DNA of 64,000 bases from Crocinitomicaceae bacterium (lineage in GTDB: Bacteria > Bacteroidota > Bacteroidia > Flavobacteriales_D > Crocinitomicaceae), in contig JBIKNN010000001.1 in NCBI GenBank assembly GCA_044358575.1, forward strand, positions 312,461 to 376,460. Direction: 5' to 3'. Under the pieces are notes generated by a model, which saw nothing but the letters and a program-made list of their open reading frames with translations, was not told the origin of the DNA and made no database searches. Below are positions 12,301-48,907 of the stretch, piece by piece. Numbering within the stretch: the first letter of the stretch is position 1; each line of letters begins with the position of its first letter. The translations under genes were made by a program, and so were the position numbers.

Positions 12301-12670
12301 TAATGGATGCAGGTGCACAATTACTACTTATTGGTGCTACAAATGTAGGATTAGGAACATCTTGAATAATTATTTGTTGAGATGCACTGGCGGTAAGTCC
12401 ATTTGCGGATGTTGTAAGTAAGGTTACATTAAAAGTTCCTGCACTAGTGAAAGTATGAGTTGGACTCGTTGAAGTTGAAAAAGTAGTATCGCCAAAATTC
12501 CAAAGATAGGAAAGTGGAGCAGTTCCTCCGTTAGATGTATTTGTAAATACAGTTGCTGCTCCAATACAAGCAGTTGTTGGAAGAGCAGAAAAACTTGCTG
12601 TTGGAACTTGTGAAAAAGAAAAACAACTTATAAATAGGAAAGGGAGAGTAAATTTAAACATGCTTATCAT
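9368..12670 (-). CDS. Large secreted PKD-repeat protein with T9SS type-B (gliding-motility-associated) C-terminal domain
   Basis: About 11 repeats carry W-x-[FW]-G-[DN]-G PKD signatures. The C-terminus PNVFTPNEDGINDIF...GVYFYRL matches the type-B CTD. I prefer the start at Met22 (12670) or Met25 (12661), which gives a signal peptide. The track's 12733 start adds a non-signal leader. Confidence 0.85.
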   Translation of the reverse strand: MISMFKFTLPFLFISCFSFSQVPTASFSALPTTACIGAATVFTNTSNGGTAPLSYLWNFGDTTFSTSTSPTHTFTSAGTFNVTLLTTSANGLTASASQQIIIQDVPNPTFVAPISSNCAPASININNTTPSVAGSSYLWNFGNGSTSILENPPAQTYNTNGSFTVSLTITTSAGCSGSTSIPNFITISNVAPSFSADFEGGCSPLTVEFLDQSIPPSPLNPITSWSWNFGNGQVFNGQNPPAQLYTTLGFYNVSLSVTTQSGCSGTTVLDSFITVGQINSMNFTVDSPINCIKTDVEFTPTVVVSPANPSAPITYFWDFNDGSSSTDTIQNPTYQFETDSGYFDVMLVVDYLGCTDTLVMNDMVYINAPIAFFDLDTNLICNPTPLVSAIWPAVAIVSDTSVHGLLSDNVQMIWQWGDGSPNTELNDAELDDANLGSTTHSYTNYGTYEIQQVINNFTTGCSDTSKQFFYVSRITSDFSIPNDTICQEVEIQLSDSSSSWSSHSIDSWAYNMGNQEFVNNGPNPTYSYPAPGNFAITLVASNDVGCSASFTQFIRVLAPPFAVISTPAADEGGCSPHLVTFLNLTVQPPSYNPMNHFDWSFSDGSPGITTLPVPITVPVTPQTSIQHTFNGEGVYVATLTAYNDFGCSSFSTKEIILTKPTAFFTLDNIVCNGEVLNTDNLSVGVSPVNYQWYIDNTIGDTLSTDFNPNEPYIEQNVAPGQTSAIHNLILIAEDINGCKDTVSISFTTSIPNANFTENLPNSVPCPPITGAYLDASTSYGTINTWLWDFGNGNQSGLQNPSNTYFFPGNYDLSLSITDQYGCQDDTLFNDYIIVGGPSGNPQYNYDVCTQTASFFITDQNNISSVVWNLGNGTTQTNLSFDYVYNIGTYSPSVILTDAAGCNVPYPINPQIIVTNTSGLSANFSASPNPVDINTAVTVLNQSSSTSGSPIISWSWDFGNGTTSNLQNPPSTTFPLVNPYTISLTIGNALGCSSTYSLIINVNPDIVPILPNVFTPNEDGINDIFALDSDYFSSYVFTALNRWGNVVFEKDRDPSFPLFLWNGKTNGGENCSDGVYFYRLKGLLTGGTEFDKTGYITLVNQ

Positions 12671-12747
12671 ATGAAAAATTAATTCGTAAAGGTATTTAAT
12701 TTTAAGACTAAAAACAACCAATAAAAGTTGCAAGCAAAATAAAAAAA

Positions 12748-23989: not shown

Positions 23990-25465
23990 ATGGCAAAAAA
24001 AATTACTATTCTCGGTGCCGGTATTTCTAGTTTATCTAGCGCATGTTTTTTAGCCAAAGAAGGTTATGACGTGACTATTCTTGAAAAGAATGCAACTATC
24101 GGCGGAAGGGGAAGACAATTTTCTGAAAATGGTTTTACCTTTGATATGGGTCCAAGTTGGTATTGGATGCCTGATGTTTTTGAACGATTTTATCAGCAAT
24201 TTAACCACACCTCATCAGATTTTTACGAGTTAAAACGACTTGATCCTTCCTACAGAGTATATTGGTCTGATCAAAGCTATACAGATGTTCCAGCCAACAT
24301 GAAAGAAATTGAAAATTGGTTTGAATCTTTAGAGCCTGGAAGCTCTAAAAAACTTCAGTTATTTTTAAAAGATGCTAAGTTCAAATATGAAGTTGGCATG
24401 CAGGACTTAGTTCACAAGCCAAGTTTGAGCATCTTTGAGTTTGCTGATAAAAGAATTTTAAAGGGTTTAATGAACATGCATTTGTTTTCTTCCTTTTCAA
24501 AATATATTCGAAAATATTTTAAGCATCCAAAAATCCTCTCACTACTTGAATTCCCTGTTCTTTTTTTAGGTGCTATGCCCAACGAAACTCCTGCGCTTTA
24601 TTCTTTGATGAATTATGCTGATATTTCACTTGGAACTTGGTACCCAAAAGGTGGCATGTACAAATTTGTAGAAGCTTTTGAAAAAATAGCAAAAGAACAA
24701 GGCGTCAAAATTCGAACAAATGCAGAAGTCACTGGCTTTGTTGTGGAAAATGATAAAATTATTGCTGCAAAAGTTGGGGAGGAATTTGTTGAAGGTGATA
24801 TCTTTGTTTCCGGAGCCGATTACCAACATACAGATGAAAAATTATTAAAAGAAAATGCAAACTATTCTGATAAATATTGGGACAAAAGAACCATGGCACC
24901 TTCATGTTTATTGTTTTATGTTGGAATTAATAAAAGAGTGACAAATCTTCAACATCACAACTTATTTTTTGATGAATCACTTGATTTTCATGGCAAAGAA
25001 ATTTACATGGATCCAAAATGGCCAACAGCTCCCTTATTTTATCTTTGTGTACCCTCTCTTTCAGATGCTACAGTTGCTCCTGAAAATTCCGAAAATATGT
25101 TTTTCCTAATTCCAATTGCGCCAAATCTAGAAGACTCAGAAGAAATTAGAGAGAAGTATTTTACTATTTTACTTGAACGTTTACAAAAATTAACAGGAAA
25201 TACAATTCAAGAAAATATTGTTTACAAAAAAAGTTATTGTATTTCTGACTTTAAAAAAGATTACAATGCATTTAAGGGAAATGCTTACGGCTTAGCAAAC
25301 ACATTAATGCAAACCGCTATATTGAAGCCGAGATTAAAAAGTAAAAAACTTTCAAATTTTTATTATACTGGTCAATTAACAGTTCCTGGCCCAGGCGTAC
25401 CTCCTTCAATTATTTCCGGTGAAGTTGTAGCGAAAGAAATTATCAAAACACATAGTTTAAACTAA
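23990..25465 (+). CDS. crtI: Phytoene desaturase (CrtI family)
   Basis: The FAD motif ILGAGISSLSSACFLAKEGYDVTILEKN is present. GPSWYWMPDVFE is typical of bacteroidete CrtI. The C-terminus has TVPGPGVP. The ATG follows the sigma gene's stop directly. Confidence 0.9.
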   Translation: MAKKITILGAGISSLSSACFLAKEGYDVTILEKNATIGGRGRQFSENGFTFDMGPSWYWMPDVFERFYQQFNHTSSDFYELKRLDPSYRVYWSDQSYTDVPANMKEIENWFESLEPGSSKKLQLFLKDAKFKYEVGMQDLVHKPSLSIFEFADKRILKGLMNMHLFSSFSKYIRKYFKHPKILSLLEFPVLFLGAMPNETPALYSLMNYADISLGTWYPKGGMYKFVEAFEKIAKEQGVKIRTNAEVTGFVVENDKIIAAKVGEEFVEGDIFVSGADYQHTDEKLLKENANYSDKYWDKRTMAPSCLLFYVGINKRVTNLQHHNLFFDESLDFHGKEIYMDPKWPTAPLFYLCVPSLSDATVAPENSENMFFLIPIAPNLEDSEEIREKYFTILLERLQKLTGNTIQENIVYKKSYCISDFKKDYNAFKGNAYGLANTLMQTAILKPRLKSKKLSNFYYTGQLTVPGPGVPPSIISGEVVAKEIIKTHSLN

Positions 25466-25469
25466 GTTT

Positions 25470-26306
25470 ATGAAACAGATATTCGACGATCTTAGTCAAC
25501 AAATTAGTGAGATAACAACAAAAAAATACAGTACTTCCTTTTCTCTAGGTATAAAATGTCTTCACTCAGATTTACATAAACCAATTTATTCGATTTATGG
25601 TTTTGTTCGATTTGCCGATGAAATTGTAGATTCCTTTGAGGGTTTTGATAAAGCAGAACTTTTGAAAGATTTTAAGATTCAAACATATAAAGCCATTGAA
25701 AGTAAAATTTCCTTGAATCCAATCTTAAATAGTTTTCAGTGGGTTGTAAATAAATACGACGTTCCACATGAATTAATTGAAACGTTTTTAAATTCCATGG
25801 AAATGGATCTTGAAGAGAAAACCTATGACACGGAAAATTATGAAAAATACATACTTGGCTCTGCTGAGGTTGTAGGACTAATGTGTTTAAAAGTATTTGT
25901 TGAAGGGAATGACACAGAATATCAAAGACTAAAGCCAAGTGCAATGAAACTAGGCTCTGCCTTTCAAAAAATTAATTTTTTACGGGATTTGAATGCTGAT
26001 TTTAAAGATCTAGGTCGTTGTTATTTTCCAGGAATAGTCATGAAAGACTTTAATTCAGACATTAAAAAGCAAATCGAAGAAGACATAGAAAAAGATTTTA
26101 TAGCTGGATATAAAGGAATTTTAGAATTACCTCGAAAAGCAAAATTTGGTGTTTATATGGCCTACAAATATTATTTCAAATTATTCAAGAAAATAAAATC
26201 AACTGAGCCAAATGTTATTCTCAATGAGCGCGTTCGACTTCCAAATTATAGAAAAGCACGCATCCTTCTAACTTCAATTATTCGTCTTAATCTCAACCGA
26301 CTATAA
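25470..26306 (+). CDS. crtB: Phytoene synthase
   Basis: It belongs to the squalene/phytoene synthase family: YGFVRFADEIVD (Asp-rich motif 1), YILGSAEVVG and NFLRDLNAD. Confidence 0.9.
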   Translation: MKQIFDDLSQQISEITTKKYSTSFSLGIKCLHSDLHKPIYSIYGFVRFADEIVDSFEGFDKAELLKDFKIQTYKAIESKISLNPILNSFQWVVNKYDVPHELIETFLNSMEMDLEEKTYDTENYEKYILGSAEVVGLMCLKVFVEGNDTEYQRLKPSAMKLGSAFQKINFLRDLNADFKDLGRCYFPGIVMKDFNSDIKKQIEEDIEKDFIAGYKGILELPRKAKFGVYMAYKYYFKLFKKIKSTEPNVILNERVRLPNYRKARILLTSIIRLNLNRL

Positions 26307-26836
26307 TGAATCCAGATTATGTTGTTCTTGTTGATGAATTAGATCAAGAAATTGGTGTAATGGAAAAATTTGCGGCGCATGAACAAGGCAAACTTCATCG
26401 TGCCTTTTCTGTATTTATATTTAATGATAAACACGAATTATTATTACAACGTCGGGCTTTGGGGAAATACCACTCAGAGGGATTATGGTCAAATACCTGC
26501 TGTAGCCATCCAATGCAAGGTGAGGAAATAATTGTAGCAGCTCAAAGAAGGCTCAAAGAAGAAATGGGAATGAGCTGTGATTTAAAACACACTTTTAAAT
26601 TTATTTATCATGCTGAACTCGATAATAACTTAAAAGAACATGAAATCGACCACATTTTAATTGGTTTTTCTAATGAGACACCACATCCAAATCTTGAAGA
26701 AGTGATTGCTTTTAAATGGCTATCGCTAGAGTTTCTTCAAAATGATGTTGAGGTTAACGAAACTGCTTATTCTGCTTGGCTGAAATTATTAATTAGAAAT
26801 CATTACTCACAAATTTTAAATAATTTAAAACCATGA
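26306..26836 (+). CDS. idi: Isopentenyl-diphosphate delta-isomerase, type 1 (Nudix fold)
   Basis: LHRAFSVFIF, the catalytic Cys motif WSNTCCSHP and the EHEI motif are present. Confidence 0.9.
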   Translation: MNPDYVVLVDELDQEIGVMEKFAAHEQGKLHRAFSVFIFNDKHELLLQRRALGKYHSEGLWSNTCCSHPMQGEEIIVAAQRRLKEEMGMSCDLKHTFKFIYHAELDNNLKEHEIDHILIGFSNETPHPNLEEVIAFKWLSLEFLQNDVEVNETAYSAWLKLLIRNHYSQILNNLKP

Positions 26837-27237
26837 GGGTTTGTAGAAGAGCAACATTTAATGCTGCGCACCGCTTGTTTCGTAAGGATTGGTCAGACGA
26901 AAAAAACAATGCTGTATTTGGAAAATGTAATAACCCTAATTTTCACGGTCACAATTATGTTCTCGAAGTATGGATTGAGGGACCTATTGATCCAGCAACT
27001 GGTTATGTAATAGATTTAAAAATTGTGAAAGACCTAATTAAAAATGAAATTACAGATCGTTTTGATCACAAAAACCTAAATTTAGACTGCAAAGAATTTT
27101 TAAATTTAAATCCAACAGCTGAAAATATTGCAGTTGTCTGTTGGAATTTGCTTCGTACAGAATTAGATGCAAAATATGAATTGAGTATCAAACTTTGGGA
27201 AACAGAAAATAACCTCGTAGAATATAAGGGCCAATAA
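26833..27237 (+). CDS. 6-pyruvoyl-tetrahydropterin synthase family protein (PTPS-type C-x5-HGH motif, not QueD-type C-x3-HGH)
   Basis: FNAAHRL and GKCNNPNFHGHNY are present. The latter is nearly identical to the animal PTPS active-site segment as I remember it. The protein is 134 aa. Confidence 0.85.
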   Translation: MRVCRRATFNAAHRLFRKDWSDEKNNAVFGKCNNPNFHGHNYVLEVWIEGPIDPATGYVIDLKIVKDLIKNEITDRFDHKNLNLDCKEFLNLNPTAENIAVVCWNLLRTELDAKYELSIKLWETENNLVEYKGQ

Positions 27238-27256
27238 ATCACTTAAATCAAGAAAA

Positions 27257-28564
27257 ATGACTGCTCTTTTTTGGCATAGACGTGATTTAAGAATTAATGA
27301 TAATAAAGGTCTTTTTGAAGTTTTAAAGCAAAATGAGATTGTCCATCCAATTTTTATTTTTGATAAATCCATCTTAGATAAATTACCAAATAATGATCAG
27401 CGCATTTTATTTATATACCAAGAAATTGAAAGTCTAAAAAAAAGCTATCAAAATCTTGGGTCAGATTTATGGGTTTACTATGGTGAACCTTCAGAAATCA
27501 TTCCGAAAATAGCACAAGAATTAAACTGTTCATCAGTTTATTTTAATAATGATTATGAGCCTTATGCTCTACAACGAGACCAAGAAATTCAAGTATCATT
27601 AAATAATATAAAAATTGAATTCATAGGAAATAAAGACCATGTTATCTTTGAAAAAAATGAGGTCTTAAAAGATGATGGAAAACCCTATACAATCTTTACT
27701 CCTTATTCAAGAAAATGGAAGGCAAATTTAAAAGAAGAGGACCTAAGAGAATATTCCATAGAAAAATACAGTGGAAATTTAGTCCAAAAAGAACAAGAAG
27801 AAGCCTTAATTACTCTTGAAGAGATGGGTTTTGAATCAAAAGTTTTGCATGATTTTCCAGATAGAATTGCCAAGAACGAAATTTTAAATAAATATCACCT
27901 TTCTCGCAACTTTCCTTCTGTGAAAGGAACTAGCAAGTTAAGTCTTCATCTTAGATTTGGAACGATTAGTATTCGAAAGTTGGCACTAATAGCTCGCGAA
28001 CAAAACGAAACCTACCTCAACGAGTTAATTTGGCGTGACTTTTATCAAATGATTATTTTTCACTTTCCAAAAAGTGCTGAAAATTCATTTAAAGCGCAAT
28101 ACGACAAAATTATTTGGGAAAAAAACGAAGTCCATTTTGATTCTTGGTGTACTGGAAAAACAGGTTATCCTATAGTTGATGCTGGAATGCGAGAATTAAA
28201 TGCAACAGGTTTTATGCACAACAGAGTTAGAATGGTTGTAGCTAGCTTTCTCACAAAACATTTGTTGTTAGATTGGCGCTTAGGGGCCGCCTACTTTGCT
28301 GAGAAACTTTTGGATTTTGAACTTGCAAGTAATACTGGAGGATGGCAATGGGCAGCAGGTTGTGGTTGTGATGCCGCTCCCTATTTTCGTGTATTCAATC
28401 CGCAAGCGCAGCAGGAAAAATTTGATAAATCATTCGAATACATTAAAAAATGGGTTCCAGAATACGGAACAAGTTCTTATCCTGAGCCAATTATTGAACA
28501 TAAATTTGCAAGAGAACGAATTTTACAACGATTTAAATCTGCATTAAACGAAACCAATGCTTAA
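27257..28564 (+). CDS. Deoxyribodipyrimidine photolyase / cryptochrome family flavoprotein
   Basis: The N-terminus is LFWHRRDLRINDN. The FAD domain has TGYPIVDAGMREL..GFMHNRVRM...GGWQWAAGCGCDAAPYFRVFNP. CPD class I versus Cry-DASH cannot be resolved by eye. Confidence 0.92.
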   Translation: MTALFWHRRDLRINDNKGLFEVLKQNEIVHPIFIFDKSILDKLPNNDQRILFIYQEIESLKKSYQNLGSDLWVYYGEPSEIIPKIAQELNCSSVYFNNDYEPYALQRDQEIQVSLNNIKIEFIGNKDHVIFEKNEVLKDDGKPYTIFTPYSRKWKANLKEEDLREYSIEKYSGNLVQKEQEEALITLEEMGFESKVLHDFPDRIAKNEILNKYHLSRNFPSVKGTSKLSLHLRFGTISIRKLALIAREQNETYLNELIWRDFYQMIIFHFPKSAENSFKAQYDKIIWEKNEVHFDSWCTGKTGYPIVDAGMRELNATGFMHNRVRMVVASFLTKHLLLDWRLGAAYFAEKLLDFELASNTGGWQWAAGCGCDAAPYFRVFNPQAQQEKFDKSFEYIKKWVPEYGTSSYPEPIIEHKFARERILQRFKSALNETNA

Positions 28565-38507: not shown

Positions 38508-39200
38508 CTATAGCTCTTCACTAAAAGTGTAGCCGACACCTTTAATTGTTCGGATAACTGAATCCCCCAATTTTTCTCTTAATTTTCGAATGTGAACATC
38601 AATTGTTCGTTCGCCAACAATTGTATCATTACCCCAAACTATCGAAAGAATTTGATCTCTGTTAAAAACCTTACCTGGGCGACTTGCGAGTAACTCTAAT
38701 AGTTCAAATTCTTTTTTTGGTAAGATTATAGATAAACCATCTACTTCTATTAAAAATTTTTCTCTGTCGATTTTTATTTTTTTAGAAGGTGAATCAACAT
38801 CGATTCTTTTTGTATTCTCAAACCTTCTTAACAAAGATTCTATTTTAGTAATCAATAAACGCGGGCGAATTGGTTTTGTGATATAATCATCAGCACCAGC
38901 TTCAAAACCTGCAATTTGAGCATAATCTTCTGCACGAGATGTTAAAAAAACAATAATGGGCTGCGCTAAATTTAAATCTTTTCGAATCATTTGACATGCT
39001 TCAATACCGTCTATTTTCGGCATCATCACATCTAAAATTATCAAGGATGGCATTATCTGCTGTGTTAATCGAACTCCCTCTTCTCCATTTGAAGCGGTAA
39101 ATACTTTGTAACCTTCTTTCCTAATCGTATAAGATAGAAATTCTAAAATATCTGGTTCGTCATCTACAAGTAAAATAGTATGCCCCCTTAAATTATCCAT
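38508..39200 (-). CDS. OmpR/PhoB-family response regulator (no cognate kinase adjacent)
   Basis: The receiver has ILLVDDEPDI and LIILDVMMPKIDG. The winged-helix output has REKFLIEVDG...LTKKEFELLELL...TIDVHIRKLREKL. Confidence 0.9.
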   Translation of the reverse strand: MDNLRGHTILLVDDEPDILEFLSYTIRKEGYKVFTASNGEEGVRLTQQIMPSLIILDVMMPKIDGIEACQMIRKDLNLAQPIIVFLTSRAEDYAQIAGFEAGADDYITKPIRPRLLITKIESLLRRFENTKRIDVDSPSKKIKIDREKFLIEVDGLSIILPKKEFELLELLASRPGKVFNRDQILSIVWGNDTIVGERTIDVHIRKLREKLGDSVIRTIKGVGYTFSEEL

Positions 39201-39209
39201 TCTTTTATT

Positions 39210-39244
39210 TTAAAAAAGGGCTGCCAAAACTTTTAACAGCCCTT
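39210..39244 (-). terminator. Strong hairpin / probable rho-independent terminator after the T9SS protein gene
   Basis: On the minus strand the stem is AAGGGCUG...CAGCCCUU (8 bp). It can be extended by 2 G-U and 3 A-U pairs around a triloop, and is followed by UUUU. It ends about 15 nt before the response-regulator ATG. Confidence 0.6.
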
Positions 39245-39256
39245 ACTATTTACTGT

Positions 39257-41824
39257 TTATTTTGCAACAATAAAGCTTTTTGTGAAGCTTGAATTTTGCC
39301 CTACAAAAAGTATTGAATACATGCCATTTGCTAAAGATGACACATTCATTGTTACAAAATTTTGATCTTCATCTTGAACATCTATTGTTTGAATGATTCT
39401 TCCAACTCGATCGCTTACAAGAAGTTTAAATGCTGATCCACTTTGATTTTCAAAAGCAACAACTAAACTTTCATTCGCAGGATTTGGATAAATCGTAATG
39501 TTATTTAATCCCATTAATTCTTCAATTCCAACTGTTATATTTACAGTAAGAAGAAGTGTATCAGTACAAGCACCATTGATTGCTGTTAAGATAACTGGAT
39601 ATGAACCATTTGAAATAAATGCATGACTTGGGCTAGTAGCAGAAGAATTCGTGAAATCTGAAAAATCCCAAGAGTAAGAAGATGCTCCAGTTGAAGTATT
39701 CGTAAATGTAACAACATTTCCGTTTGTTGAGAAAGAAGCTGCTGCAGAAGGAGAAGTTGTAAATGTAACTGTCGTTGGAACAGAATTACCTACACCATCA
39801 CAAGCATTGGAATTTGTAGTTATGACACTAAAGTTGCCAGATGCAGTTACTTGAATCGCTTGTGTTGTATCACCGTTAGACCATAAGTAAGCGTCTGCAG
39901 TTGAAGATGTTAAAGTTACTAATTCACCAGAGCAAGCTTGAGTTGAAGAAGCAGATACTGTAGGTATTGGAGCAGAACTTACATTTACAGAGGTTGCAGT
40001 AGATGTAGAAGAACATCCGTTGGTGTCTGTCACAGTTACTGAGTAAGTTCCAGAAGATGTAACTGTAATCGTTGGAGTTGTTGCAAATATAGTTGCTGAA
40101 ATCCAAACATTACCTGTTGTTGAACTAGAAGCTAAATCAACAGATCCACCTGTGCAGAATGATGTTGGGCCACTTGCAGAAATTATTGGAGTTGATGGGA
40201 GTGCATTAATAGTAACTGTTATTGCTACTCGTGGACTTTCATCATTATTAGAATTAGCTTGTGAAACGTAATAAGAGTATACTCCTGCTGTTGAAGTGCT
40301 CGGAACTGGTGCAGCTACCAATGGAGTTCCACCAGTTGGTAAATCATACCATTTCAAAGAATTACCATTAGAAGAAGTTGCTGATAAAATTGTAGCTGTT
40401 TCACCCTGACAATAAGTGTATGAATTTGTAGAAACAACTGGCGCAGCAACACTAAAGAATTTAGGATGTATAAATGCTGCACCTGAAGCTGCGGAAGAAC
40501 CACTAGACAAACGTGCATCTGGAGTTGTTCCAAGTGGCGTAAATAAATTTACCCACGATACTTGAGCTATAGATTGCGTTGAGTCATTTCCATCAGCACC
40601 CCAAAAAGAAGTATAGAAAGAACTTGTTGATGCAGCCCCACCGCTTGTACCGGCATTATAAATAGTATTTGTATTATTCGTGAAACCAGTAAGAACATTA
40701 TTAGAAAAAAGCAAAGTATCTCCATTTACATTATTTACAACTGGAGTCCCTTCGATTGATAATCCTTTTTCCCAACCTACAACAAGGGAATTAAAACATG
40801 AAACAGCCGTATTTCTTCTCAAACGAAACGCTTTTTCGAACTTCTCACCCACTGGAAGAACTATTGAACCATTTCCTTTAGGTCCAACTAATGTAACGTT
40901 AGAAAAAATAGCGGCAGTTTTTGGTTGACCAGCAGAACCTGCTGCATCATTATCTGATTCAAAACTATTAGAATCTCCAATTGCATCAGAAACATCTTTA
41001 TCACGGATTGATAAGGCAAACTGTATTTTTCCTCTGAAACCAAAGTCAGTATCAAAATCATCATCTAAACCTCTGTAGGCAATAAGATGCTTACAGTTAA
41101 CAGTTCCTCCAAACCATTCAAATGAATCATCCCCAGAATGAGAAACTTGAACAAAATCTATCGTTGTTGCAGATCCAACAGATCCACAAGTTAAACCATT
41201 AATCTCTTTGTTCGGTTCTAATGCAATACCAGCAAATTCAATTCGAACATATTTTATTGTGCCAGAATTATCGTTATCGAAACTTCCACCGTATTGTGTA
41301 TCAGTTGTTGGAACAATTCCTTCAATATTTGCTACACCACCCGGTTGATTGTTTCTTGCTAATCCTAAAAGTACAATTCCACCCCAATCTCCTTCATTCC
41401 TGTTGCCTATGCCTTCGTTAGATGTAAAAATAATTGGATTCGCTAAAGTTCCAATTGCATTTAATTTTGCTCCACGTGTAACGATTAATGAACCTTGTGT
41501 CGCTTTGTCACCACGAATAATTGTCCCTGGAGCAATTGTTAAAGTTGCAGAGTTTCTCACATATATTTTATTCTGTAATAAAATAACACCACTCCAAGTT
41601 GTACTTGTTGTAATGTCTGTTGAAACTGTAGTTGTTGCTGCTGGATAATCTGTATTTTCTGCATCAAAATTTGACCAGCCCGAGGTCCAATCTGATGCTG
41701 CAGTATTGTCCGTTACAGGAAATGCACCTTTGTAGGTTGTTGGTGTCCAAAATGCATCTTGAGCGTGTAGGTTAATCCCCAAGCTTAATACAAAGCTTGC
41801 TAAGTAAATGTTTTTCTTTTTCAT
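39257..41824 (-). CDS. Secreted protein with conserved ~450-aa N-terminal domain of unknown function, Ig-like/PKD repeats and T9SS type-A C-terminal sorting domain
   Basis: It has a signal peptide. The N-domain has a DDSFEWFGGTVNCKH / DDDFDTDFGFRG block. Thr/Ser-rich Ig-like repeats and one PKD signature (YSWDFSD) follow. The C-terminal ITIYPNPANESLVV...GMYSILF...FIVAK is typical of Por_Secre_tail. Confidence 0.8.
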   Translation of the reverse strand: MKKKNIYLASFVLSLGINLHAQDAFWTPTTYKGAFPVTDNTAASDWTSGWSNFDAENTDYPAATTTVSTDITTSTTWSGVILLQNKIYVRNSATLTIAPGTIIRGDKATQGSLIVTRGAKLNAIGTLANPIIFTSNEGIGNRNEGDWGGIVLLGLARNNQPGGVANIEGIVPTTDTQYGGSFDNDNSGTIKYVRIEFAGIALEPNKEINGLTCGSVGSATTIDFVQVSHSGDDSFEWFGGTVNCKHLIAYRGLDDDFDTDFGFRGKIQFALSIRDKDVSDAIGDSNSFESDNDAAGSAGQPKTAAIFSNVTLVGPKGNGSIVLPVGEKFEKAFRLRRNTAVSCFNSLVVGWEKGLSIEGTPVVNNVNGDTLLFSNNVLTGFTNNTNTIYNAGTSGGAASTSSFYTSFWGADGNDSTQSIAQVSWVNLFTPLGTTPDARLSSGSSAASGAAFIHPKFFSVAAPVVSTNSYTYCQGETATILSATSSNGNSLKWYDLPTGGTPLVAAPVPSTSTAGVYSYYVSQANSNNDESPRVAITVTINALPSTPIISASGPTSFCTGGSVDLASSSTTGNVWISATIFATTPTITVTSSGTYSVTVTDTNGCSSTSTATSVNVSSAPIPTVSASSTQACSGELVTLTSSTADAYLWSNGDTTQAIQVTASGNFSVITTNSNACDGVGNSVPTTVTFTTSPSAAASFSTNGNVVTFTNTSTGASSYSWDFSDFTNSSATSPSHAFISNGSYPVILTAINGACTDTLLLTVNITVGIEELMGLNNITIYPNPANESLVVAFENQSGSAFKLLVSDRVGRIIQTIDVQDEDQNFVTMNVSSLANGMYSILFVGQNSSFTKSFIVAK

Positions 41825-41955
41825 AATATTTTTTTTTTAGTTGGAACAAAATTCCACAGAAAAAGAAGTTGCCATGTTACACGATATTTAAATGTTCTTT
41901 AAGTTTAGGTTAAGAACTATCGGTATTTTGTTAACATTAGAAAAAGTGGGGGTTA

Positions 41956-44802
41956 TTAGAAATTGTATTTTAATGACATAGAAACAGTTTGCCCAAACGT
42001 TATTTCTTGCCAAGCACTGTCAGTGCCTTTATCATACTTCTTGTTTTTATTTATATCTTGGAAATAGATTAAATCTTGTGCAAGTAAATCCTTAACATTT
42101 AATTTTAATTCTAATTTTTTCTTAAACATTTTGGAAATCTGAAAGTCAATTACATTTCTACCATTCTCCCAAACACTAGGTTCTTGGATACTACCAGCAA
42201 TAGCAATTCGTTGACCAACTATATTATAAGACAAACTAAAATTAACATCCTTAGGAGCTGAATAATAAATACCCGCATTAATAATATAAGGAGATTGGCC
42301 TTGCAATGGTCTTGCGGAATTAGTATATTCTGCTTGACCTGCATACATACTTAAATCTACACTAGAACGAATAATTGAAGCATTTGCATAAAGTGTTATA
42401 TCCTTTAAGAACGAAGTTGAATCCTTAGAATTTAAAAATCCAAGATTCATTCTGTATTCAAATTCAGCTCCATAATTCTTAGTATTTCCAACATTGTCAT
42501 AATAAAGTTCTGGTGTTCCAGATGTTCCAGTTCGTAAAATCAATTCAATTGGATTGGTAAACTGCTTGTAGAATGCCGAGACACTAAAAATTTGTCCAGC
42601 ACCAGGAAAAAATTCAAATCTAGCATCATAATTATTAATAGATGCTCGCTTTAATGTGGGGTCTCCTGATGTTAAATTATCATTCAAGAAATTGTAAAAG
42701 GAAAATGGCGCTAACTCTCTAAATTCAGGTCGAGAAACTGTTTTTGACGCACTCAAACGAAAATTTATTTTATTCGTAAGAGAATAAATTAAATTCACGG
42801 AAGGTAAAATATCTACAACAGTTGTATCAATATTTTGCTGAAGATTAGAACCAAATTCTATGTATTTAAAATTCTGATGATACGACTCTAAACGCGCGCC
42901 ACCGACAATTCTAAACTTTTCAGTAATTTTTGTATCAAACATAGCATAAGCAGCATTTAATAAAGAAAATGCTTGATAACTGTCATCTACATTTGTTCCT
43001 TCTTCTAATTTAAAACCACCTTGACCATCCGCCATTAAACCTAAATTTGAATTTGAAAAGATTTGGTCTTCAGGTAATAATAATAATTGACTATTAAAAC
43101 TTGAGTTCCCTGCTGGATCGTATTTGGAAAAACCTAAATTTCTCGATTCAAAAGAACGCGTTCGGTATTGATGCATCCCCCCAATTTTTAGTTCCGTCTT
43201 TGTATTCAAGAACTCAAGAGGAATAGAAAGATCGTATTTCGAACTTACTATTTTTTCATTTAGCAGCGACCAAAACATATTTCCAGCACCAAGAGTTGAA
43301 ATATCATTATTTTGTATCACTGCAGCAAATGGAAGTGCTGTATCTGATTGCTGATAAACAGTTCTTCTTAGGAAAGGTATTTCACGTTTCACATCACTAA
43401 TACCAGCTATCCATTTAAATTTTATTTTATTTTTAAATTCATGATTGCCAAGTAATTGAGAGCTCAGAAGCTTATTTTGAGTGTACCAAATATTTGTAGA
43501 TTTCTCAGAGAAAACTGATTCAACATCCATGTCTCGCTTACCATTTCGAATATTCACTTTGTCATCTGAGGAAAGCGAATAAAGTGTTTTTAATTGAAGG
43601 GAATTATTTTTGTTTAGCTTGAATTTCATATTAAACATCGCACTATTTAATACAGACTGAGTAAATGCTGAATCTTTTAATTCATTTTTAGTGATAACTC
43701 CTGCTGTTGACTCTTCAAATTCTCTTCGTATAAGTTTATTAAAACTCATGTTACTTTGGTAATTGTAAGCAAATACATATCCGAAATTTCTCTCCTCAGT
43801 TAACTTAATTGTTTTCCCGATGCTGTATTGCAAATTTAGATTTGGTAAAGCCACACGATTATATGTCCCCCAACTATTTGGAATTGATTTCGCATACTCG
43901 GCTTTTTGAAGAGCGGAAAGATTATTAAATTCTTCTGTTGATGGTAAACCAGATGGAAGTGCCCTAGAAGAAGAACTAAAACCCAAAAAGTCTGTTTTGC
44001 TTCCATCGTATGTTTTAAAATCTTTAAAAGTTGTAATTAGATTGTAAGAACTTCCTATTTGGATACTTTGAAAATCATTTTCCTTGGGTTCAGTTGTATT
44101 AATATCAATTACACCGCCAGCAAATTCTCCAGGTAAATCGGGTGTTGCTGTCTTAATAATCACTAAATTATCTAACATGTTTGAAGGGAAAATATCAAAA
44201 GAGAAGGCCTTTCGATCGCTTTCAGAACTTGGCAAAGGGGCACCATTAATTAAGGCAAAATTGTAACGATCACTTAAGCCCCTTACAACAACAAATTTAT
44301 TATCCTGAACACTTGCTCCACTAATTCTTTTTAAAACATCTGAAGCTTTTGAATCGGGAGTCTTTTTAAATGTCTCTGATGAAATTCCATCTACAACCGT
44401 TGCGCTATTTCTTTGTAGTCGTAATATTTCAGTTGTTGATTCTCTGCTAACTTTTGCTTTGACAGTAACAGGGCCTAATTCTAAAACAACTTTATCTAAA
44501 GGAATATTTAAAACCAAATTCTCGTTTTCTTTTAGTTTTATTTCCGTTAATATTAGGTTGTTGTATGTTTCATTTCTAGCCTCTAATATGTAAGTTCCTG
44601 AGCTCAAACCTTTCAAAGAATAATTCCCGTCGCCATCTGTTACAGCACCTTTTCCAAGTCCTTGAAGAATTACTTTAGCACCAAATAAAGCTTCATTGGT
44701 TTTAGAATCGGTTATTTTTCCACTTAAGGAAGCATTTTGAGAAAATGTATAAGAAATTAAAATACAAGTAAATAGAAGGGTAAAAAAAGATTTATAGTGC
44801 AT
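41956..44802 (-). CDS. TonB-dependent receptor with N-terminal carboxypeptidase-regulatory-like domain
   Basis: LSGKITDSKTNEALFGAKV matches CarbopepD_reg. The plug has VVRGLSDRYN. A long beta-barrel ends in the aromatic terminus SLKYNF. There is no adjacent SusD-like gene. Confidence 0.9.
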   Translation of the reverse strand: MHYKSFFTLLFTCILISYTFSQNASLSGKITDSKTNEALFGAKVILQGLGKGAVTDGDGNYSLKGLSSGTYILEARNETYNNLILTEIKLKENENLVLNIPLDKVVLELGPVTVKAKVSRESTTEILRLQRNSATVVDGISSETFKKTPDSKASDVLKRISGASVQDNKFVVVRGLSDRYNFALINGAPLPSSESDRKAFSFDIFPSNMLDNLVIIKTATPDLPGEFAGGVIDINTTEPKENDFQSIQIGSSYNLITTFKDFKTYDGSKTDFLGFSSSSRALPSGLPSTEEFNNLSALQKAEYAKSIPNSWGTYNRVALPNLNLQYSIGKTIKLTEERNFGYVFAYNYQSNMSFNKLIRREFEESTAGVITKNELKDSAFTQSVLNSAMFNMKFKLNKNNSLQLKTLYSLSSDDKVNIRNGKRDMDVESVFSEKSTNIWYTQNKLLSSQLLGNHEFKNKIKFKWIAGISDVKREIPFLRRTVYQQSDTALPFAAVIQNNDISTLGAGNMFWSLLNEKIVSSKYDLSIPLEFLNTKTELKIGGMHQYRTRSFESRNLGFSKYDPAGNSSFNSQLLLLPEDQIFSNSNLGLMADGQGGFKLEEGTNVDDSYQAFSLLNAAYAMFDTKITEKFRIVGGARLESYHQNFKYIEFGSNLQQNIDTTVVDILPSVNLIYSLTNKINFRLSASKTVSRPEFRELAPFSFYNFLNDNLTSGDPTLKRASINNYDARFEFFPGAGQIFSVSAFYKQFTNPIELILRTGTSGTPELYYDNVGNTKNYGAEFEYRMNLGFLNSKDSTSFLKDITLYANASIIRSSVDLSMYAGQAEYTNSARPLQGQSPYIINAGIYYSAPKDVNFSLSYNIVGQRIAIAGSIQEPSVWENGRNVIDFQISKMFKKKLELKLNVKDLLAQDLIYFQDINKNKKYDKGTDSAWQEITFGQTVSMSLKYNF

Positions 44803-45093: not shown

Positions 45094-46110
45094 ATGTCCT
45101 ATTTAAATCTTTTATTTTTATCGCTATCAATTTTATGTTATTCAACTTCTTACTCCCAAAACAAAGTAGTATTTATTGAAGGTGAAGCACAAGGAACAAC
45201 TTATCACATTACCTATTACGACAAGCAAGATCGAAATTTTGAAGATGAAATTTCAAAACTCTTATTTGAATTTAATTTATCACTTTCAACTTACAATCCA
45301 AATTCTATTATTTCTAAAATAAATAATAATGAAAAAGATGTTGTGCTTGATGACTATTTTCTAAGATGTTTTAAAAAAGGGAAAGAGTTATGGAAGAATA
45401 CAAATGGGGCATTTGACCCAACCGTATATCCATTGGTAAATGCGTGGGGATTTGGACCAAAGAAAAAAATTGAGGTTACAAAAGAAAAAATAGACAGTAT
45501 TTTAGCATTTGTCGGTTTTGATTTAATCAACATTAAAGAAGGAAAAATAGTAAAAACGGATCCCAGAGTTTCACTTGATTTTAATGCTTTTGCTCAAGGA
45601 TATTCTGTTGATATTATTCGGCAATTTTTTAATTCTAAGAATATTGACTCCTACATCATTGAAATTGGTGGAGAAGTTTATGCAAAAGGACTAAACGACA
45701 AAGATTCTTGGTTAGTTGGGATAGAAATTCCTATTGCCAATCAAAAAAGTTTAAATTCTTATCATACAATTGTAAAACTTGAAAATAAAGCGATTGCAAC
45801 TTCTGGAAATTATAGGCGCTATATTATAGAAAATGGCGAAAAAATAGTTCATCATATCGACCCTAAAACTGGATATCCAACAAAAAACAATTTACTAAGT
45901 GTTACAATTATTTCAGACTCATGTATTATTTCAGATGCAACTGCAACAGGGATTTTGGTTATGGGATTGAGAAAAGCAAGGAAATACCTCAAAAAACATA
46001 AGGAAATTGAGGCTTTAATAATTTACATGGATAGGAGAGGAATCTATAAAACTTTCCTTTCAGATGGTTTTAAAAAGTTTATTGTTAGCAGAGAAAAATC
46101 AAGTGCTTAA
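45094..46110 (+). CDS. apbE: FAD:protein FMN transferase (ApbE family)
   Basis: It has a signal sequence. FDPTVYPLVNAWGFG, the DxNAFAQGY-like segment, ATSGNYRRY and HHIDPKTGYP are ApbE hallmarks. Confidence 0.88.
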   Translation: MSYLNLLFLSLSILCYSTSYSQNKVVFIEGEAQGTTYHITYYDKQDRNFEDEISKLLFEFNLSLSTYNPNSIISKINNNEKDVVLDDYFLRCFKKGKELWKNTNGAFDPTVYPLVNAWGFGPKKKIEVTKEKIDSILAFVGFDLINIKEGKIVKTDPRVSLDFNAFAQGYSVDIIRQFFNSKNIDSYIIEIGGEVYAKGLNDKDSWLVGIEIPIANQKSLNSYHTIVKLENKAIATSGNYRRYIIENGEKIVHHIDPKTGYPTKNNLLSVTIISDSCIISDATATGILVMGLRKARKYLKKHKEIEALIIYMDRRGIYKTFLSDGFKKFIVSREKSSA

Positions 46111-46144
46111 TTACTTCTGGAGAAGAAATTGAAAATAGTTAAGC

Positions 46145-46717
46145 TTAATCTTTCTTTTCAGGATTTTCAATAATTTCTGCATTTAAAGGATTCCATGTAA
46201 GTGAAATCACATCAAAATTAGCATCTGCTGCTGGAGACTGTGCATCGGCATTTGGACCTTTCACAAATGAAAAAGACCTAACTACTGTTCCATTTGCACT
46301 GTGATTCCAAGTCTCTTCAATGGAAATTTTATAAATACCATCAGGGAGAAGATTCCCATTAACATCAGTTCCATCCCATGTAACAGATCTATTACCAAAA
46401 CTTGCTAAAGTCGCACCAGTGGTTGCACTAACAACATTGCAGTTTGGAGCAATTGCATTTGATGCAGCACCACCTGAATTAACCGCCCAAGTTTGTAAAT
46501 GATCTCTTGTAACCGAGCCAACATTTCTAGATATTGTTTTTACAAATTGACCTAAATCTGATTGAATCCAAACCGCAAGAACGTGTTTACCATAATTATT
46601 ATACGTTGCAGAAGCTGGTTTACTTACTTCATTAAAACTAAATGATAATGTCCCTGCTGTTTGTGCTATTCCAGAAAATGTAAATCCTAATGAGATAATA
46701 AATGCGATTTTTTTCAT
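46145..46717 (-). CDS. Secreted DUF2271-like protein with candidate ApbE flavinylation site (TGAT)
   Basis: It has a signal peptide. HVLAVWIQ...VSATTGATLASFGNRSVTWDGTDVNGNLLPDGIYKISIEE follows the DUF2271 pattern I remember (xVWIE...SGATRxPG...WDGxD..G..v..G.Y.l.vE). T100-G-A-T103 is encoded at 46409..46420. Confidence 0.7.
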   Translation of the reverse strand: MKKIAFIISLGFTFSGIAQTAGTLSFSFNEVSKPASATYNNYGKHVLAVWIQSDLGQFVKTISRNVGSVTRDHLQTWAVNSGGAASNAIAPNCNVVSATTGATLASFGNRSVTWDGTDVNGNLLPDGIYKISIEETWNHSANGTVVRSFSFVKGPNADAQSPAADANFDVISLTWNPLNAEIIENPEKKD

Positions 46718-46738
46718 GTTTTATTATTTTAAATTTAA

Positions 46739-47083
46739 TTAATTATTTTTTTTGCCTTGATTTATCCAGCATTCTACACGTTGAATAACACTGTCTGGCA
46801 ATGCATATCCAATATTAAAGCCATCTCTTGGCATCAACTTATAACCACTATTTCTCATTGCACCAATAATTGCAGAAGAATTAGATGAAATATTTGCATG
46901 ATTTGTAAAAGAATAACCATTCTGATTGTCATGACAGCCTGCACAATTATTCTGAATGAGTGGTAGAATTTCATCGTTAAAAGAAACCGTATCTGAACAA
47001 TTAGCATCTGCATAAAATTCAGCTTTATCTTTTTTGCAACTACAAAAAATTAATAGAGAAAGTATAAATATGCTAGATTTCAT
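46739..47083 (-). CDS. Small lipoprotein with a single c-type heme-binding motif (CAGCH)
   Basis: A lipobox is present (LIFCSCK). FNDEILPLIQNNCAGCHDN ... MP ... WINQG resembles the small haem-binding / PSCyt-like domains. The protein is 114 aa. Confidence 0.6.
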   Translation of the reverse strand: MKSSIFILSLLIFCSCKKDKAEFYADANCSDTVSFNDEILPLIQNNCAGCHDNQNGYSFTNHANISSNSSAIIGAMRNSGYKLMPRDGFNIGYALPDSVIQRVECWINQGKKNN

Positions 47084-47468
47084 TTTTTTTGATTAGTGGT
47101 GAAAGGGCTAGCCAAAAAAGTGGAAAAATAAAGTACAAAGGAATTACAAATCCAGGATAAAATTCAGTCATTTCTAATGTCTCTGGAAAATCTTCCTTCA
47201 TTATTGGAAATAGAATGCTACTTAGAGTTGCAAAAACAAGAACTATATTAAATATGATAGTGCCGAATTTTTGTGCTAATCGATTACTGAGAAAACATAA
47301 ACCGGATACGCTTAGTCCTAGAGTAAAATAAGTTGCTATAATTTTCCAAAGAGGAAGTATCAGAGAAAAGTTTGCCATTTCCTCATAGTATTTTGTCACA
47401 TAAACAGCTGCTCCGAGAGATGAAATTAAGGAAACTACTAAACCCAAAAGAAAATAGGACTTAAACAT
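47073..47468 (-). CDS. Hypothetical 4-TM membrane protein
   Basis: Four hydrophobic helices are visible and the protein contains no His. It is translationally packed between the YceI and heme-lipoprotein genes. Confidence 0.5.
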   Translation of the reverse strand: MFKSYFLLGLVVSLISSLGAAVYVTKYYEEMANFSLILPLWKIIATYFTLGLSVSGLCFLSNRLAQKFGTIIFNIVLVFATLSSILFPIMKEDFPETLEMTEFYPGFVIPLYFIFPLFWLALSPLIKKNEI

Positions 47469-47469
47469 G

Positions 47470-48009
47470 TTATTTTTTTTCTGCAGGAAGATTAAAAGAA
47501 ACTTTCATAATATCTGGAACGACATCACTCTTTTTACCAATGTTAAAATCCATTCTATTTACATTAATACTTCCAGAAAAAGAAATAGCATTTCCAGACC
47601 CGCTTTTCTTAGCCTTTACAACATAAACTTTGCTTGTCCCTTTGAGCGTTAAGTCACCTGTAATTTTATATAAATCATCTTCTTTTTCTACTGTTTTTGA
47701 TACAAACTTGATATTCGGGTATTTTTTGGCATCAAACCATTCTTCTGTTTGAGCTTTTTTATCTCGCATACCATTACCTGTTTTTATTGACGAAATCGCG
47801 ATTGAGAAATTAAATTTTGATGTCTCTAAACTTTGCTCGTTGAAATCTATTGTGCCTTCCATTTTTTTGAAAGAACCTGAAGGATCTGCACTCTTAAATT
47901 TAAGAGCGAAAGCGTCTGTAATTTCAAAACGATCTATTGGAAGAAAAGCTAGAGAAGTACTTATAACAAGTAAAAAAATGTAAGAAATGATAAGATAATA
48001 TTTTTTCAT
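47470..48009 (-). CDS. YceI-family (lipocalin-like, polyisoprenoid-binding) periplasmic protein
   Basis: It has a signal peptide. GTIDF......F.ISSIKTGNGMRDKKAQTEEWFDAKKYPNIKFVSK...YKITGDLTLKGTSK matches the YceI pattern. Confidence 0.8.
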   Translation of the reverse strand: MKKYYLIISYIFLLVISTSLAFLPIDRFEITDAFALKFKSADPSGSFKKMEGTIDFNEQSLETSKFNFSIAISSIKTGNGMRDKKAQTEEWFDAKKYPNIKFVSKTVEKEDDLYKITGDLTLKGTSKVYVVKAKKSGSGNAISFSGSINVNRMDFNIGKKSDVVPDIMKVSFNLPAEKK

Positions 48010-48019
48010 AGTTTAAAGA

Positions 48020-48907
48020 TTAAAATTTACGAGCTACACAAAAACCGAACCTAAATTGCCCTTTCAACCAATTTTCTGTAGTGTAAGGTATAAATTGAGT
48101 TTCACCTAAACCACCAGAATTAGTAAAATTGACAGTAAAGTTGTGCCCAAAAGTAAACCACTCCAAAGCAATTCCTAGACTATTCTTATAAAAACTTGAA
48201 GGGCGAAATTGTTCATTGTGAAAAACATGATAGTATTCAGCAAGTATTGCAAAGCGACTACTAATTTTCAAACGAAATGCGCTTCCAAGAGCAAATAGTG
48301 TATTTTGGTCATTTTGTGTAACATAATTTCGGTGAAGAAGCGTTGGAACAAGAGCAAGGGAAAATCGCTCACCAAAATGTTTTGCTAAATTAAGCTGAGT
48401 AAAATAAGCTAGTCGATGAGAAGCTTTTGGAAAAAAACTAACATCAGATTCAAGGGTTGAACTTTTCATGTAGGTAAAACTAGAACCTGAAATCACAGTC
48501 ATAGAAAGAGGCATAATGCCTTTTTTTTGCTCAAGGACTTTGTATTTTAAAAATCCATCTAAAAGCGAGCGATAAGGAGCTCCTGTTCCTTTAGATCTTC
48601 CTAATCCAAGCATGAATTTATCACTTACGCCATATTCTATTGCTATTCTCATGTCTGAGAGGTAATCAAAACCAAACATATTTTGGTATCCACCATTTGG
48701 TCCTGAAAAATCCCCGAAGCGATGCTCAATTCTCATTTCATATGTACCTTTTGAAAGCGTTTCATTGGAATGGCCATTTATTATTCGAGAAGAGGAAAAT
48801 GTTTTTGGTTCTTCAAATGGTATTTCGGATTCATCCTTAGTCTGAGCTAAAAATAAAGGTGAAACAGCTAGAAATAAAAATGTAAAAAAGGATAAGGAGA
48901 AATTCAT
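48020..48907 (-). CDS. Outer-membrane beta-barrel protein (DUF5777-like)
   Basis: I prefer the start at Met24 (ATG at 48907), which gives the signal peptide MNFSLSFFTFLFLAVSPLFLAQ. The sequence has an alternating-hydrophobic pattern and a C-terminal Phe (ARKF). The family name is from memory of YceI-neighbouring genes. Confidence 0.55.
   Translation of the reverse strand: MNFSLSFFTFLFLAVSPLFLAQTKDESEIPFEEPKTFSSSRIINGHSNETLSKGTYEMRIEHRFGDFSGPNGGYQNMFGFDYLSDMRIAIEYGVSDKFMLGLGRSKGTGAPYRSLLDGFLKYKVLEQKKGIMPLSMTVISGSSFTYMKSSTLESDVSFFPKASHRLAYFTQLNLAKHFGERFSLALVPTLLHRNYVTQNDQNTLFALGSAFRLKISSRFAILAEYYHVFHNEQFRPSSFYKNSLGIALEWFTFGHNFTVNFTNSGGLGETQFIPYTTENWLKGQFRFGFCVARKF

Follow-up and report, generated by a model that had tools for sequence, protein, structure and literature searches.

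Within a 64,000-nucleotide (nt) stretch of DNA from a Crocinitomicaceae bacterium (hereafter the window), we analysed a locus in which apbE, the gene of a flavin adenine dinucleotide (FAD):protein flavin mononucleotide (FMN) transferase, converges on five closely packed genes of the opposite strand, with a gap of 34 nt. In order of transcription these encode an outer-membrane beta-barrel, a YceI-family lipocalin, a four-helix transmembrane (4-TM) protein, a lipoprotein with a single haem-attachment motif and a secreted protein of 190 amino acids (aa), and the spacings between them are 10, 1, -11 and 21 nt (Table 1). A previous reading, made from the letters of the DNA alone (the sequence-only reading), had described these six open reading frames (ORFs). 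Its coordinates and spacings were all exact on recheck, and the TGAT and CAGCH motifs, the lack of His in the 131-aa membrane protein and the terminal Phe of the barrel were as it had described them. The Pfam search that it had proposed confirmed the ApbE, DUF2271 and YceI families and identified the barrel as DUF5777. Comparison with reference loci (L-numbers) revealed that in relatives the last gene of the operon encodes an interchangeable putative redox cargo of the type IX secretion system (T9SS), and a five-gene cell-envelope operon of this kind appears to be undescribed.

Table 1. Positions of the features discussed, in the window or, where an L-number is given, in the reference loci compared with it.
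Feature	Position	Strand	Remarks
apbE	45094-46110	+	FAD:protein FMN transferase; N-terminal signal-like hydrophobic segment; convergent with the DUF2271-like gene
190-aa secreted DUF2271-family beta-sandwich	46145-46717	-	Predicted ApbE substrate; without T9SS sorting domain
T100-G-A-T103, predicted flavinylation site	46409-46420	-	FMN expected on Thr103 of the 190-aa protein
114-aa lipoprotein	46739-47083	-	Predicted mono-haem c-type cytochrome; lipobox Cys16; candidate distal ligand M84-P85
CAGCH (C47-A-G-C50-H51) of the 114-aa lipoprotein	46931-46945	-	Single haem-attachment motif
131-aa four-helix (4-TM) membrane protein	47073-47468	-	Overlaps the 114-aa lipoprotein gene by 11 nt
179-aa YceI-family lipocalin	47470-48009	-	Signal peptide; predicted isoprenoid/quinone binder
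295-aa DUF5777 outer-membrane beta-barrel	48020-48907	-	About 12 strands; C-terminal Phe; first gene of the operon
TonB-dependent receptor, 855-aa T9SS cargo (beta-helix, Ig_7, PKD), OmpR-type response regulator	38508-44802	-	Three genes
Light-related group (carotenoid genes, DNA photolyase) and 1121-aa PKD-repeat protein	23990-28564 and 9368-12733		
dnaA	50171-51601		
Reeler/choice-of-anchor V T9SS cargo, about 288 aa	L089:9217-10083; L091:8216-9088; L093:6001-6867; L094:6001-6855		No apbE
Long DUF2271-like/PKD/Ig_7 proteins	L021:10001-13192; L031:2567-5533; L047:4360-7128; L061:10001-12625		
Secreted TPR-repeat protein	L001:9023-9934; L087:9198-9713; L092:8183-8689; L043:12256-12861		
Extracytoplasmic function (ECF) sigma/putative anti-sigma pair	L087:11663-13259; L089:10154-11754; L091:9145-10730; L092:10649-12257		Absent from the window
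Stretches with oxidative-stress or Fe-S repair genes	L087:4309-4911; L092:3309-3908; L093:1-1314; L091:1-174; L001:1781-3154; L090:1588-5992		

The longest ORF of the barrel gene begins at 48976 and overlaps the stop codon of an rsmI-like gene by 4 nt. The true start is probably the one given in Table 1, which is favoured both by the length of homologues (295-297 aa) and by the signal peptide. With that start a 66-nt AT-rich spacer is left, which could hold the operon promoter; a promoter and terminator scan and a search for inverted repeats gave nothing above chance in this AT-rich DNA.

ApbE matches its Pfam family (PF02424) over the full length of the profile (273 bits, positions 2-266 of 266), and scores 175 bits on the NCBIfam ApbE model, under the cut-off of 498 of that equivalog. 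The 190-aa protein passes the DUF2271 model (PF10029) with 34.3 bits, the Pfam gathering cut-off being 27.3. It is also matched by FlgD_ig (35 bits), and several of its relatives score weakly or not at all on the DUF2271 model, so we regard the family as a divergent DUF2271 subfamily. Its AlphaFold2 model is a beta-sandwich with a predicted local distance difference test (pLDDT) score of 90.7, with which a structure search of the PDB retrieved weak FlgD Ig-like matches and no DUF2271-like structure. A profile search with the alignment of homologues was swamped by the T9SS sorting domain (240,963 hits) and gave no link to canonical DUF2271, and the same broad search yielded at least 330 representative clusters at E <= 1e-30. 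NCBIfam added nothing decisive on the operon proteins.

Experiments on DUF2271 have established a conserved [S/T]GA[S/T] motif as the site at which ApbE attaches the flavin (PMC8238504). By itself the TGAT motif of the 190-aa protein is weak evidence, since one [ST]GA[ST] arises by chance in 4.5% of shuffles of the mature protein. We therefore turn to its conservation in the window protein and 83 homologous ORFs from 80 reference genomes (n=84). G101 and T103 are invariant (84/84), position 100 is T or S in 83 sequences and position 102 is A in 80, and the block A-x-T-G-A-T is the best-conserved part of the family in the homologue alignments. Conservation of G101 and T103 is thus far beyond chance. 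Furthermore, a homologue of apbE immediately adjoins the DUF2271-like gene, usually in convergent orientation, in 56 of the 68 related loci with room for it. With the Pfam cut-off passed, the motif conserved and apbE adjacent, the pairing of a DUF2271 member with apbE put forward in the sequence-only reading is upheld. We predict with high confidence that the 190-aa protein is a substrate of ApbE, which would attach the flavin to Thr103.

The 114-aa lipoprotein has eight invariant residues over 16 homologues (C16, P41, C47, C50, H51, P85, W106 and G110), and the Met of 'LMP', preceding the invariant Pro, is present in most of them. Its scores lie under every cytochrome cut-off: 16.9 bits on Cytochrome_CBB3 (cut-off 27), 16.4 on another Pfam cytochrome model and, as the best NCBIfam score, 19.2 on c551 (cut-off 118). 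The prediction of a mono-haem c-type cytochrome, in which CAGCH would hold the haem, is nonetheless well supported. Upstream in the operon, the YceI protein (PF04264) scores 109 bits in Pfam, above the cut-off. Proteins of this family bind ubiquinone-8 and other polyisoprenoids (PMC9113575, PMC8981238), and by analogy the ligand here is predicted to be an isoprenoid or a quinone. They act together with cytochromes in BcnA/LcoA and in Cbp2D/E, which speaks for YceI as a redox partner here.

The 131-aa 4-TM protein has no match in Pfam or NCBIfam. Its homologues hold the same slot in 15 of the 80 loci and again in L087-L094, and the family has no invariant His or Cys, the window copy being devoid of His. 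A role as a haem-b or b561-like donor is ruled out by the absence of invariant His and Cys. Most relatives have a His in a conserved 'PLHF' stretch, where the window clade has Tyr ('PLYF').

The barrel passes DUF5777 (PF19089) with 250 bits, above the Pfam cut-off. Its AlphaFold2 model has 12 strands (pLDDT 72.5), and Foldseek matches it to small monomeric barrels, namely OmpG, NanC, the COG4313 channel and FapF. Two His (H62 in 'HRFG' and H255 in 'GGHxF') and five Arg/Lys are invariant, even in members that are about 30% identical. Strand periodicity suggests that these His point towards the lipid, a hint of a catalytic or cofactor site rather than a passive pore. We rejected a porin-cytochrome conduit, the model being an OmpG/NanC-like barrel of about 12 strands and the haem motif single.

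To assess how firmly these genes are linked, we turn to their neighbourhoods. DUF5777 lies within 8 kb of the DUF2271-like gene in 26 of the 80 loci. Genes for YceI (18 loci, and another 8 in which it is more divergent), for the cytochrome-like lipoprotein (22) and for the 4-TM protein (15) are nearby as well. The same gene order is found in L001, L007-L011, L022-L027, L054, L070, L072, L087, L088 and L092, and DUF5777 still adjoins the DUF2271-like gene in the rearranged layouts of L003, L021, L031, L056, L057, L061, L062 and L073. Conservation of the neighbourhood, on which the sequence-only reading had staked its case, is thus borne out, as one co-directional block in many genomes of Crocinitomicaceae and Flavobacteriales. 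Its treatment of the five genes as one unit holds in part: the block is co-conserved, but it is not obligate, since about 60% of the DUF2271-like/ApbE pairs have no DUF5777 module nearby.

The DUF5777 family is much larger (967 hits at E <= 1e-10), and in the contexts sampled a constant block consists of DUF5777, YceI, the 4-TM protein of about 125 aa and the cytochrome of about 115 aa. These four genes form an independent, widespread module. The slot that follows them is taken by the DUF2271-like cargo, together with ApbE, in L087, L092 and the window-like L088, and by a T9SS protein of the Reeler/choice-of-anchor V type, with no ApbE, in L089, L091 and the P0084 context. The DUF2271-like/ApbE pair and the DUF5777 module are hence two modules that are often joined, not an obligate unit.

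Other recurrent neighbours of the DUF2271-like gene are a gene for a secreted TPR protein (37/80 loci) and, beyond it, lineage-specific genes only. In several genomes the gene of this TPR-repeat protein, of 170-300 aa, separates the cytochrome gene from the DUF2271-like gene; the window operon has none. DUF2271 usually keeps company with PepSY-like proteins and DUF4198 (PMC8238504), as the sequence-only reading had correctly stated when it pointed out that these partners were missing here. Indeed, domain scans found no partner of the PepSY (PF03929/PF16357), DUF4198, NapH, MsrQ or DsbD type among the window ORFs of at least 200 aa, and none is recurrent in the 80 loci. Both cargo variants are flanked by genes for an ECF sigma factor and for a possible anti-sigma factor, which is a membrane protein of about 340 aa that contains TPR-like repeats. 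Genes for oxidative stress and Fe-S repair (SodA, haem peroxidase, CCP_MauG, an AhpC/TSA-like protein and suf genes) lie a few kb from the module in differing syntenies.

The alternative cargo passes both Pfam Reeler (33.8 bits, cut-off 21) and NCBIfam choice-of-anchor V (89 bits, cut-off 42), and its family counts 626 hits. It has an invariant G-A-P-x-E...C-T-x-C-H, M114 and H137, and the CxxCH is invariant in 35 diverse members, a pattern that points to covalently bound haem. All five sampled genes of this cargo (5/5) occupy the slot after the four-gene module, and divergent members in L093 and L094 again directly follow the block. L093 and L001 are one locus in two genomes. They have in common flanks at 65-89% protein identity (ABC transporter, cupin, rhodanese, sigma-54 activator, GPDH, amidohydrolase and NusG) as well as the four module genes. 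L093 lacks the TPR, DUF2271-like and ApbE genes of L001 and carries the Reeler/CxxCH cargo in their place. A flavin carrier and its maturase are thus cleanly replaced by a haem-motif carrier at an orthologous locus. Interchange of flavin and cytochrome has been described for other systems (PMC8238504), a theme that this swap matches, and it is our strongest argument that the fifth-slot protein is a redox partner of the module.

Both cargos share a sorting domain that the window protein has lost. Of 63 homologues found for the 190-aa protein, most are 260-300 aa long and end in Por_Secre_tail, the type A C-terminal sorting domain of the T9SS (PF18962/TIGR04183). Over the 80 reference loci, about 66 ORFs of 261-309 aa have this domain, nine ORFs of 577-1063 aa combine it with PKD and Ig_7 domains, and four ORFs of 190 aa make up the window clade (L007-L010). 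About 75 of the 80 relatives carry the sorting domain; it is absent from the window protein, whose gene stops 34 nt short of the apbE stop codon. From the presence of the domain, the DUF2271-like flavoprotein of most relatives is a predicted surface or secreted cargo, and from its loss, the 190-aa protein of the window probably stays periplasmic. The loss is recent, because the closest relative outside the clade (L011, 81% identity) still has the domain. The window itself matches metagenome-assembled genomes of freshwater-lake Crocinitomicaceae at 97-98% identity. In most pairs within the clade the ratio of non-synonymous to synonymous substitution rates (dN/dS) of the shortened gene is 0.10-0.25, and the gene is therefore under purifying selection and not decaying.

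The longest variants (874-1063 aa) begin with the DUF2271-like domain, its motif intact, and continue with PKD/Ig_7 repeats and the sorting domain. Long variants are mostly found without an adjoining apbE, and several lie next to DUF5777. Extra [ST]GA[ST] sites in them were considered as acceptors and judged to be probable coincidences of repeat sequence.

Building on the family memberships, the conservation of the motifs, the gene linkage and the swap of cargo at the orthologous locus, we propose that the locus is a two-part extracytoplasmic redox system, made of the flavoprotein pair and the envelope module, that acts as an electron relay in the envelope; we give this reading a probability of about 0.45. 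ApbE would attach FMN covalently to Thr103 of the DUF2271-family beta-sandwich and so produce a small flavin electron carrier, whose gene would be co-transcribed with the four module genes. The YceI lipocalin would be periplasmic and hold an isoprenoid quinone, menaquinone in this phylum. Electrons derived from quinol would leave the inner membrane on this YceI-bound quinone, for which the 4-TM protein of the inner membrane may be the loading or docking site; their next stations would be the haem lipoprotein at the outer membrane and, after it, a terminal carrier in the fifth slot. In most relatives this carrier would be exported through the T9SS, as an FMN protein where ApbE is present and as a CxxCH Reeler protein where it is not. 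In the window clade, which has lost the export domain, the periplasm would be the end point of the chain. What we infer in this scheme is in which order and direction the electrons flow, the donor, the final acceptor and the role of the barrel.

The sequence-only reading had suggested a relay from periplasm to outer membrane. What stands of it is the fit: a T9SS-exported flavoprotein that is interchangeable with a CxxCH protein fits a redox chain whose end lies at the outer membrane or outside it, and the position of the DUF2271-like gene, 21 nt downstream of the module and in the same direction, counts toward coupling. What does not stand is its application to the window, where the protein has no T9SS domain, and a conduit, which is unlikely; the relay itself is a proposal.

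Several observations weigh against the relay. There is no recognisable quinol oxidoreductase or haem-b membrane protein linked to the locus, as the sequence-only reading had noted in calling the electron donor not evident, and neither His nor Cys is conserved in the 4-TM protein. No curated cytochrome model of Pfam or NCBIfam reaches its cut-off for the 114-aa protein. According to its model, the barrel of about 12 strands cannot enclose a cytochrome, being too small, and would leave the crossing of electrons through the outer membrane to a surface cargo unexplained. DUF5777 is nearby in only 16 of the 42 DUF2271-like loci that have at least 4 kb on both sides, and the four-gene module also stands alone, with no cargo following it (L090). 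Finally, the part of the scheme that concerns surface delivery is inapplicable to the window, where the terminal protein has no export signal.

The main rival, possible if doubtful, is an envelope antioxidant system, in which a quinol-type antioxidant bound by YceI would act in the outer membrane or periplasm against reactive oxygen species or lipid peroxyl radicals. Its recycling, or else the scavenging of peroxide and superoxide, would fall to the haem lipoprotein and to the cargo with its flavin or haem, and DUF5777 would open the way to outer-membrane lipid. Such a system would be a Bacteroidota counterpart of BcnA/LcoA/PsrA, and indeed the YceI protein BcnA and a cytochrome guard Burkholderia from lipid peroxidation (PMC9113575). 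The oxidative-stress and suf genes near the module in several syntenies fit this reading, as do the ECF sigma factor and putative anti-sigma protein that flank many versions of the module, and the seemingly lipid-facing His and Arg of DUF5777 would recall outer-membrane lipid enzymes. On the other hand, there is no cytochrome b561 partner, the neighbouring stress genes vary by genome, their proximity being a descriptive observation, and protection of membrane lipid does not obviously need export of the cargo to the surface.

A more specific form of the relay is extracellular electron transfer by freshwater Bacteroidota, of a kind not recognised before, which would run from YceI-menaquinone to the haem lipoprotein at DUF5777 and from there to an FMN or haem protein displayed through the T9SS, the window clade being a derived periplasmic form. 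We hold it to be unlikely.

That the two modules are unrelated neighbours is more doubtful still. ApbE and the DUF2271-like protein would then be self-contained, for instance as a ferric or other reductase with an unlinked membrane protein as donor, and the DUF5777 genes would do something else, such as transport of hydrophobic compounds. The separate occurrence of the pair in about 60% of cases (no DUF5777 within 8 kb) and of the module in L090 speaks for this, as do the likeness of the barrel to the small substrate channels NanC and COG4313 and the fact that YceI proteins are lipid carriers. Against it stand the spacing and direction of the flavoprotein gene, an adjacency to DUF5777 that survives several independent rearrangements, and the filling of the slot at the orthologous locus by another T9SS protein with a cofactor motif, a type of cargo that is linked to the module in 5/5 cases.

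Improbable, in turn, is iron acquisition, in which the periplasmic flavoprotein would reduce ferric chelates imported by the TonB-dependent receptor that is transcribed divergently from apbE, and which the sequence-only reading had suggested on account of this receptor. DUF2271 clusters have been tied to iron uptake (PMC8238504). Receptor and apbE are divergent in the window clade, a FecR/ECF-sigma/receptor set lies near the L003 locus, and a Peripla_BP_2 gene lies beside apbE in L005. Against this reading, the adjacency of the receptor is confined to the close clade L007-L010 and L088, and the receptor is followed by the T9SS beta-helix/PKD protein, not by iron genes. The receptor has an N-terminal CarboxypepD_reg domain, and its best NCBIfam match is TIGR01782 (TonB-Xanth-Caul), with 205.6 bits, below the cut-off of 310. 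This subfamily is associated mostly with carbohydrate uptake. As a sign of metal reduction or uptake the receptor thus finds little support, and as a conserved partner we rejected it on its clade-limited adjacency.

Least probable is that the 190-aa protein is unflavinylated and a structural Ig-like or FlgD-like surface domain, its conserved A-T-T-G-A-T being structural: the DUF2271 score is modestly over the cut-off with FlgD_ig equally good, many relatives fall below the DUF2271 threshold and the long PKD/Ig variants mostly have no adjacent apbE, but no block of the family is better conserved than the motif, with its invariant acceptor Thr, apbE adjoins in most loci, and the loci with Reeler/CxxCH cargo have no apbE, as expected if ApbE serves the DUF2271-like protein.

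Among known systems, the ApbE/DUF2271 clusters (PMC8238504) resemble the locus in having an extracytoplasmic ApbE beside a secreted DUF2271 protein, the [S/T]GA[S/T] site and the interchange of flavin and cytochrome, and by its pair of enzyme and substrate the locus is one of this class. They differ in their partners, which here are DUF5777, YceI, the 4-TM protein and the mono-haem lipoprotein instead of PepSY-like proteins and DUF4198, and in the DUF2271 domain, which here is divergent and usually has a T9SS sorting domain. We therefore do not assign the locus to the PepSY-like flavinylation systems, neither PepSY-like protein nor DUF4198 having been found in the scans. Cbp2D and Cbp2E of Cellvibrio and Saccharophagus are secreted proteins in which c-type cytochrome domains and a YceI-like domain occur together (PMC8981238). 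Here, in contrast, these are separate proteins with no carbohydrate-binding module, and a barrel and a flavinylated or CxxCH T9SS cargo are added. By analogy, the locus would work most like a split, cell-bound version of this YceI-plus-cytochrome arrangement with an added flavin carrier.

In BcnA (YceI)/LcoA (cytochrome b561)/PsrA, which detoxify lipid peroxyl radicals (PMC9113575), a periplasmic YceI lipocalin likewise has genetic links to a membrane protein and a cytochrome. Here, however, the cytochrome is a c-type lipoprotein instead of a b561 of the membrane, no His is conserved in the 4-TM protein, and there are extra genes for barrel and cargo; with the bis-His cytochrome b561 partner absent, the locus does not belong to this system. 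Cyc2 and MtrCAB (PMC8406198) also pair a c-type cytochrome with an outer-membrane beta-barrel, and Cyc2 also has one haem, but their barrels have 16 (Cyc2) and 26 (MtrB) strands as against about 12, and there is no multi-haem chain here. We rejected membership in Cyc2, as barrel and cytochrome are unfused, AxPxFAR[Q/K][T/Y] is absent and ILPLIQNN precedes the CxxCH, and likewise a conduit of the MtrAB/Pcc type, given one CxxCH and a barrel of about 12 strands instead of about 26.

The parallel in Gram-positive bacteria has a different architecture. In the extracellular electron transfer of Listeria, the ApbE-family protein FmnB flavinylates PplA, a surface lipoprotein with FMN-binding domains that acts as the last electron carrier, outside the cell. 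A dedicated NADH dehydrogenase and a quinone are part of that system; our locus, by contrast, is that of a diderm, with T9SS export in relatives and no linked enzyme recognisable as the donor.

In the survey of flavinylation (Meheust et al. 2021, PMC8238504) many clusters have no assignment. Its main text mentions neither YceI nor Bacteroidetes, and neither YceI nor DUF5777 was found in those passages of its supplement that were searched. Literature searches on DUF5777 and on YceI with ApbE returned nothing relevant, and the one full text found to mention type IX secretion together with flavinylation merely cites the survey.

ApbE-dependent flavinylation is already known to feed many extracytoplasmic redox systems. 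The locus described here defines a conserved operon in abundant freshwater Bacteroidota that ties flavinylation to type IX secretion, and it offers a natural experiment in which a flavin protein and its maturase are exchanged for a haem-motif protein at the same locus. The window variant is a derived form of it, probably periplasmic. If the relay were true, these bacteria would have a testable route for electrons to the cell surface, where they could, for example, reduce iron or another acceptor or help to fend off oxidants. DUF5777, the 4-TM protein and choice-of-anchor V, all families of unknown function, would then each gain a role.

Some further features of the window may be noted. In the window clade alone, the TonB-dependent receptor, the 855-aa T9SS cargo and the OmpR-type response regulator take the place of the ECF sigma pair. 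Scans of the full 64 kb for tRNA genes and for Rfam families that exceed their gathering scores came back empty. A light-related group comprises a DNA photolyase gene and two carotenoid genes, one for a crtI-like amine oxidase and one for a crtB-like phytoene synthase; upstream lies the gene of a 1121-aa PKD-repeat protein with a CHU_C T9SS signal. The presence of dnaA places the window near the replication origin.

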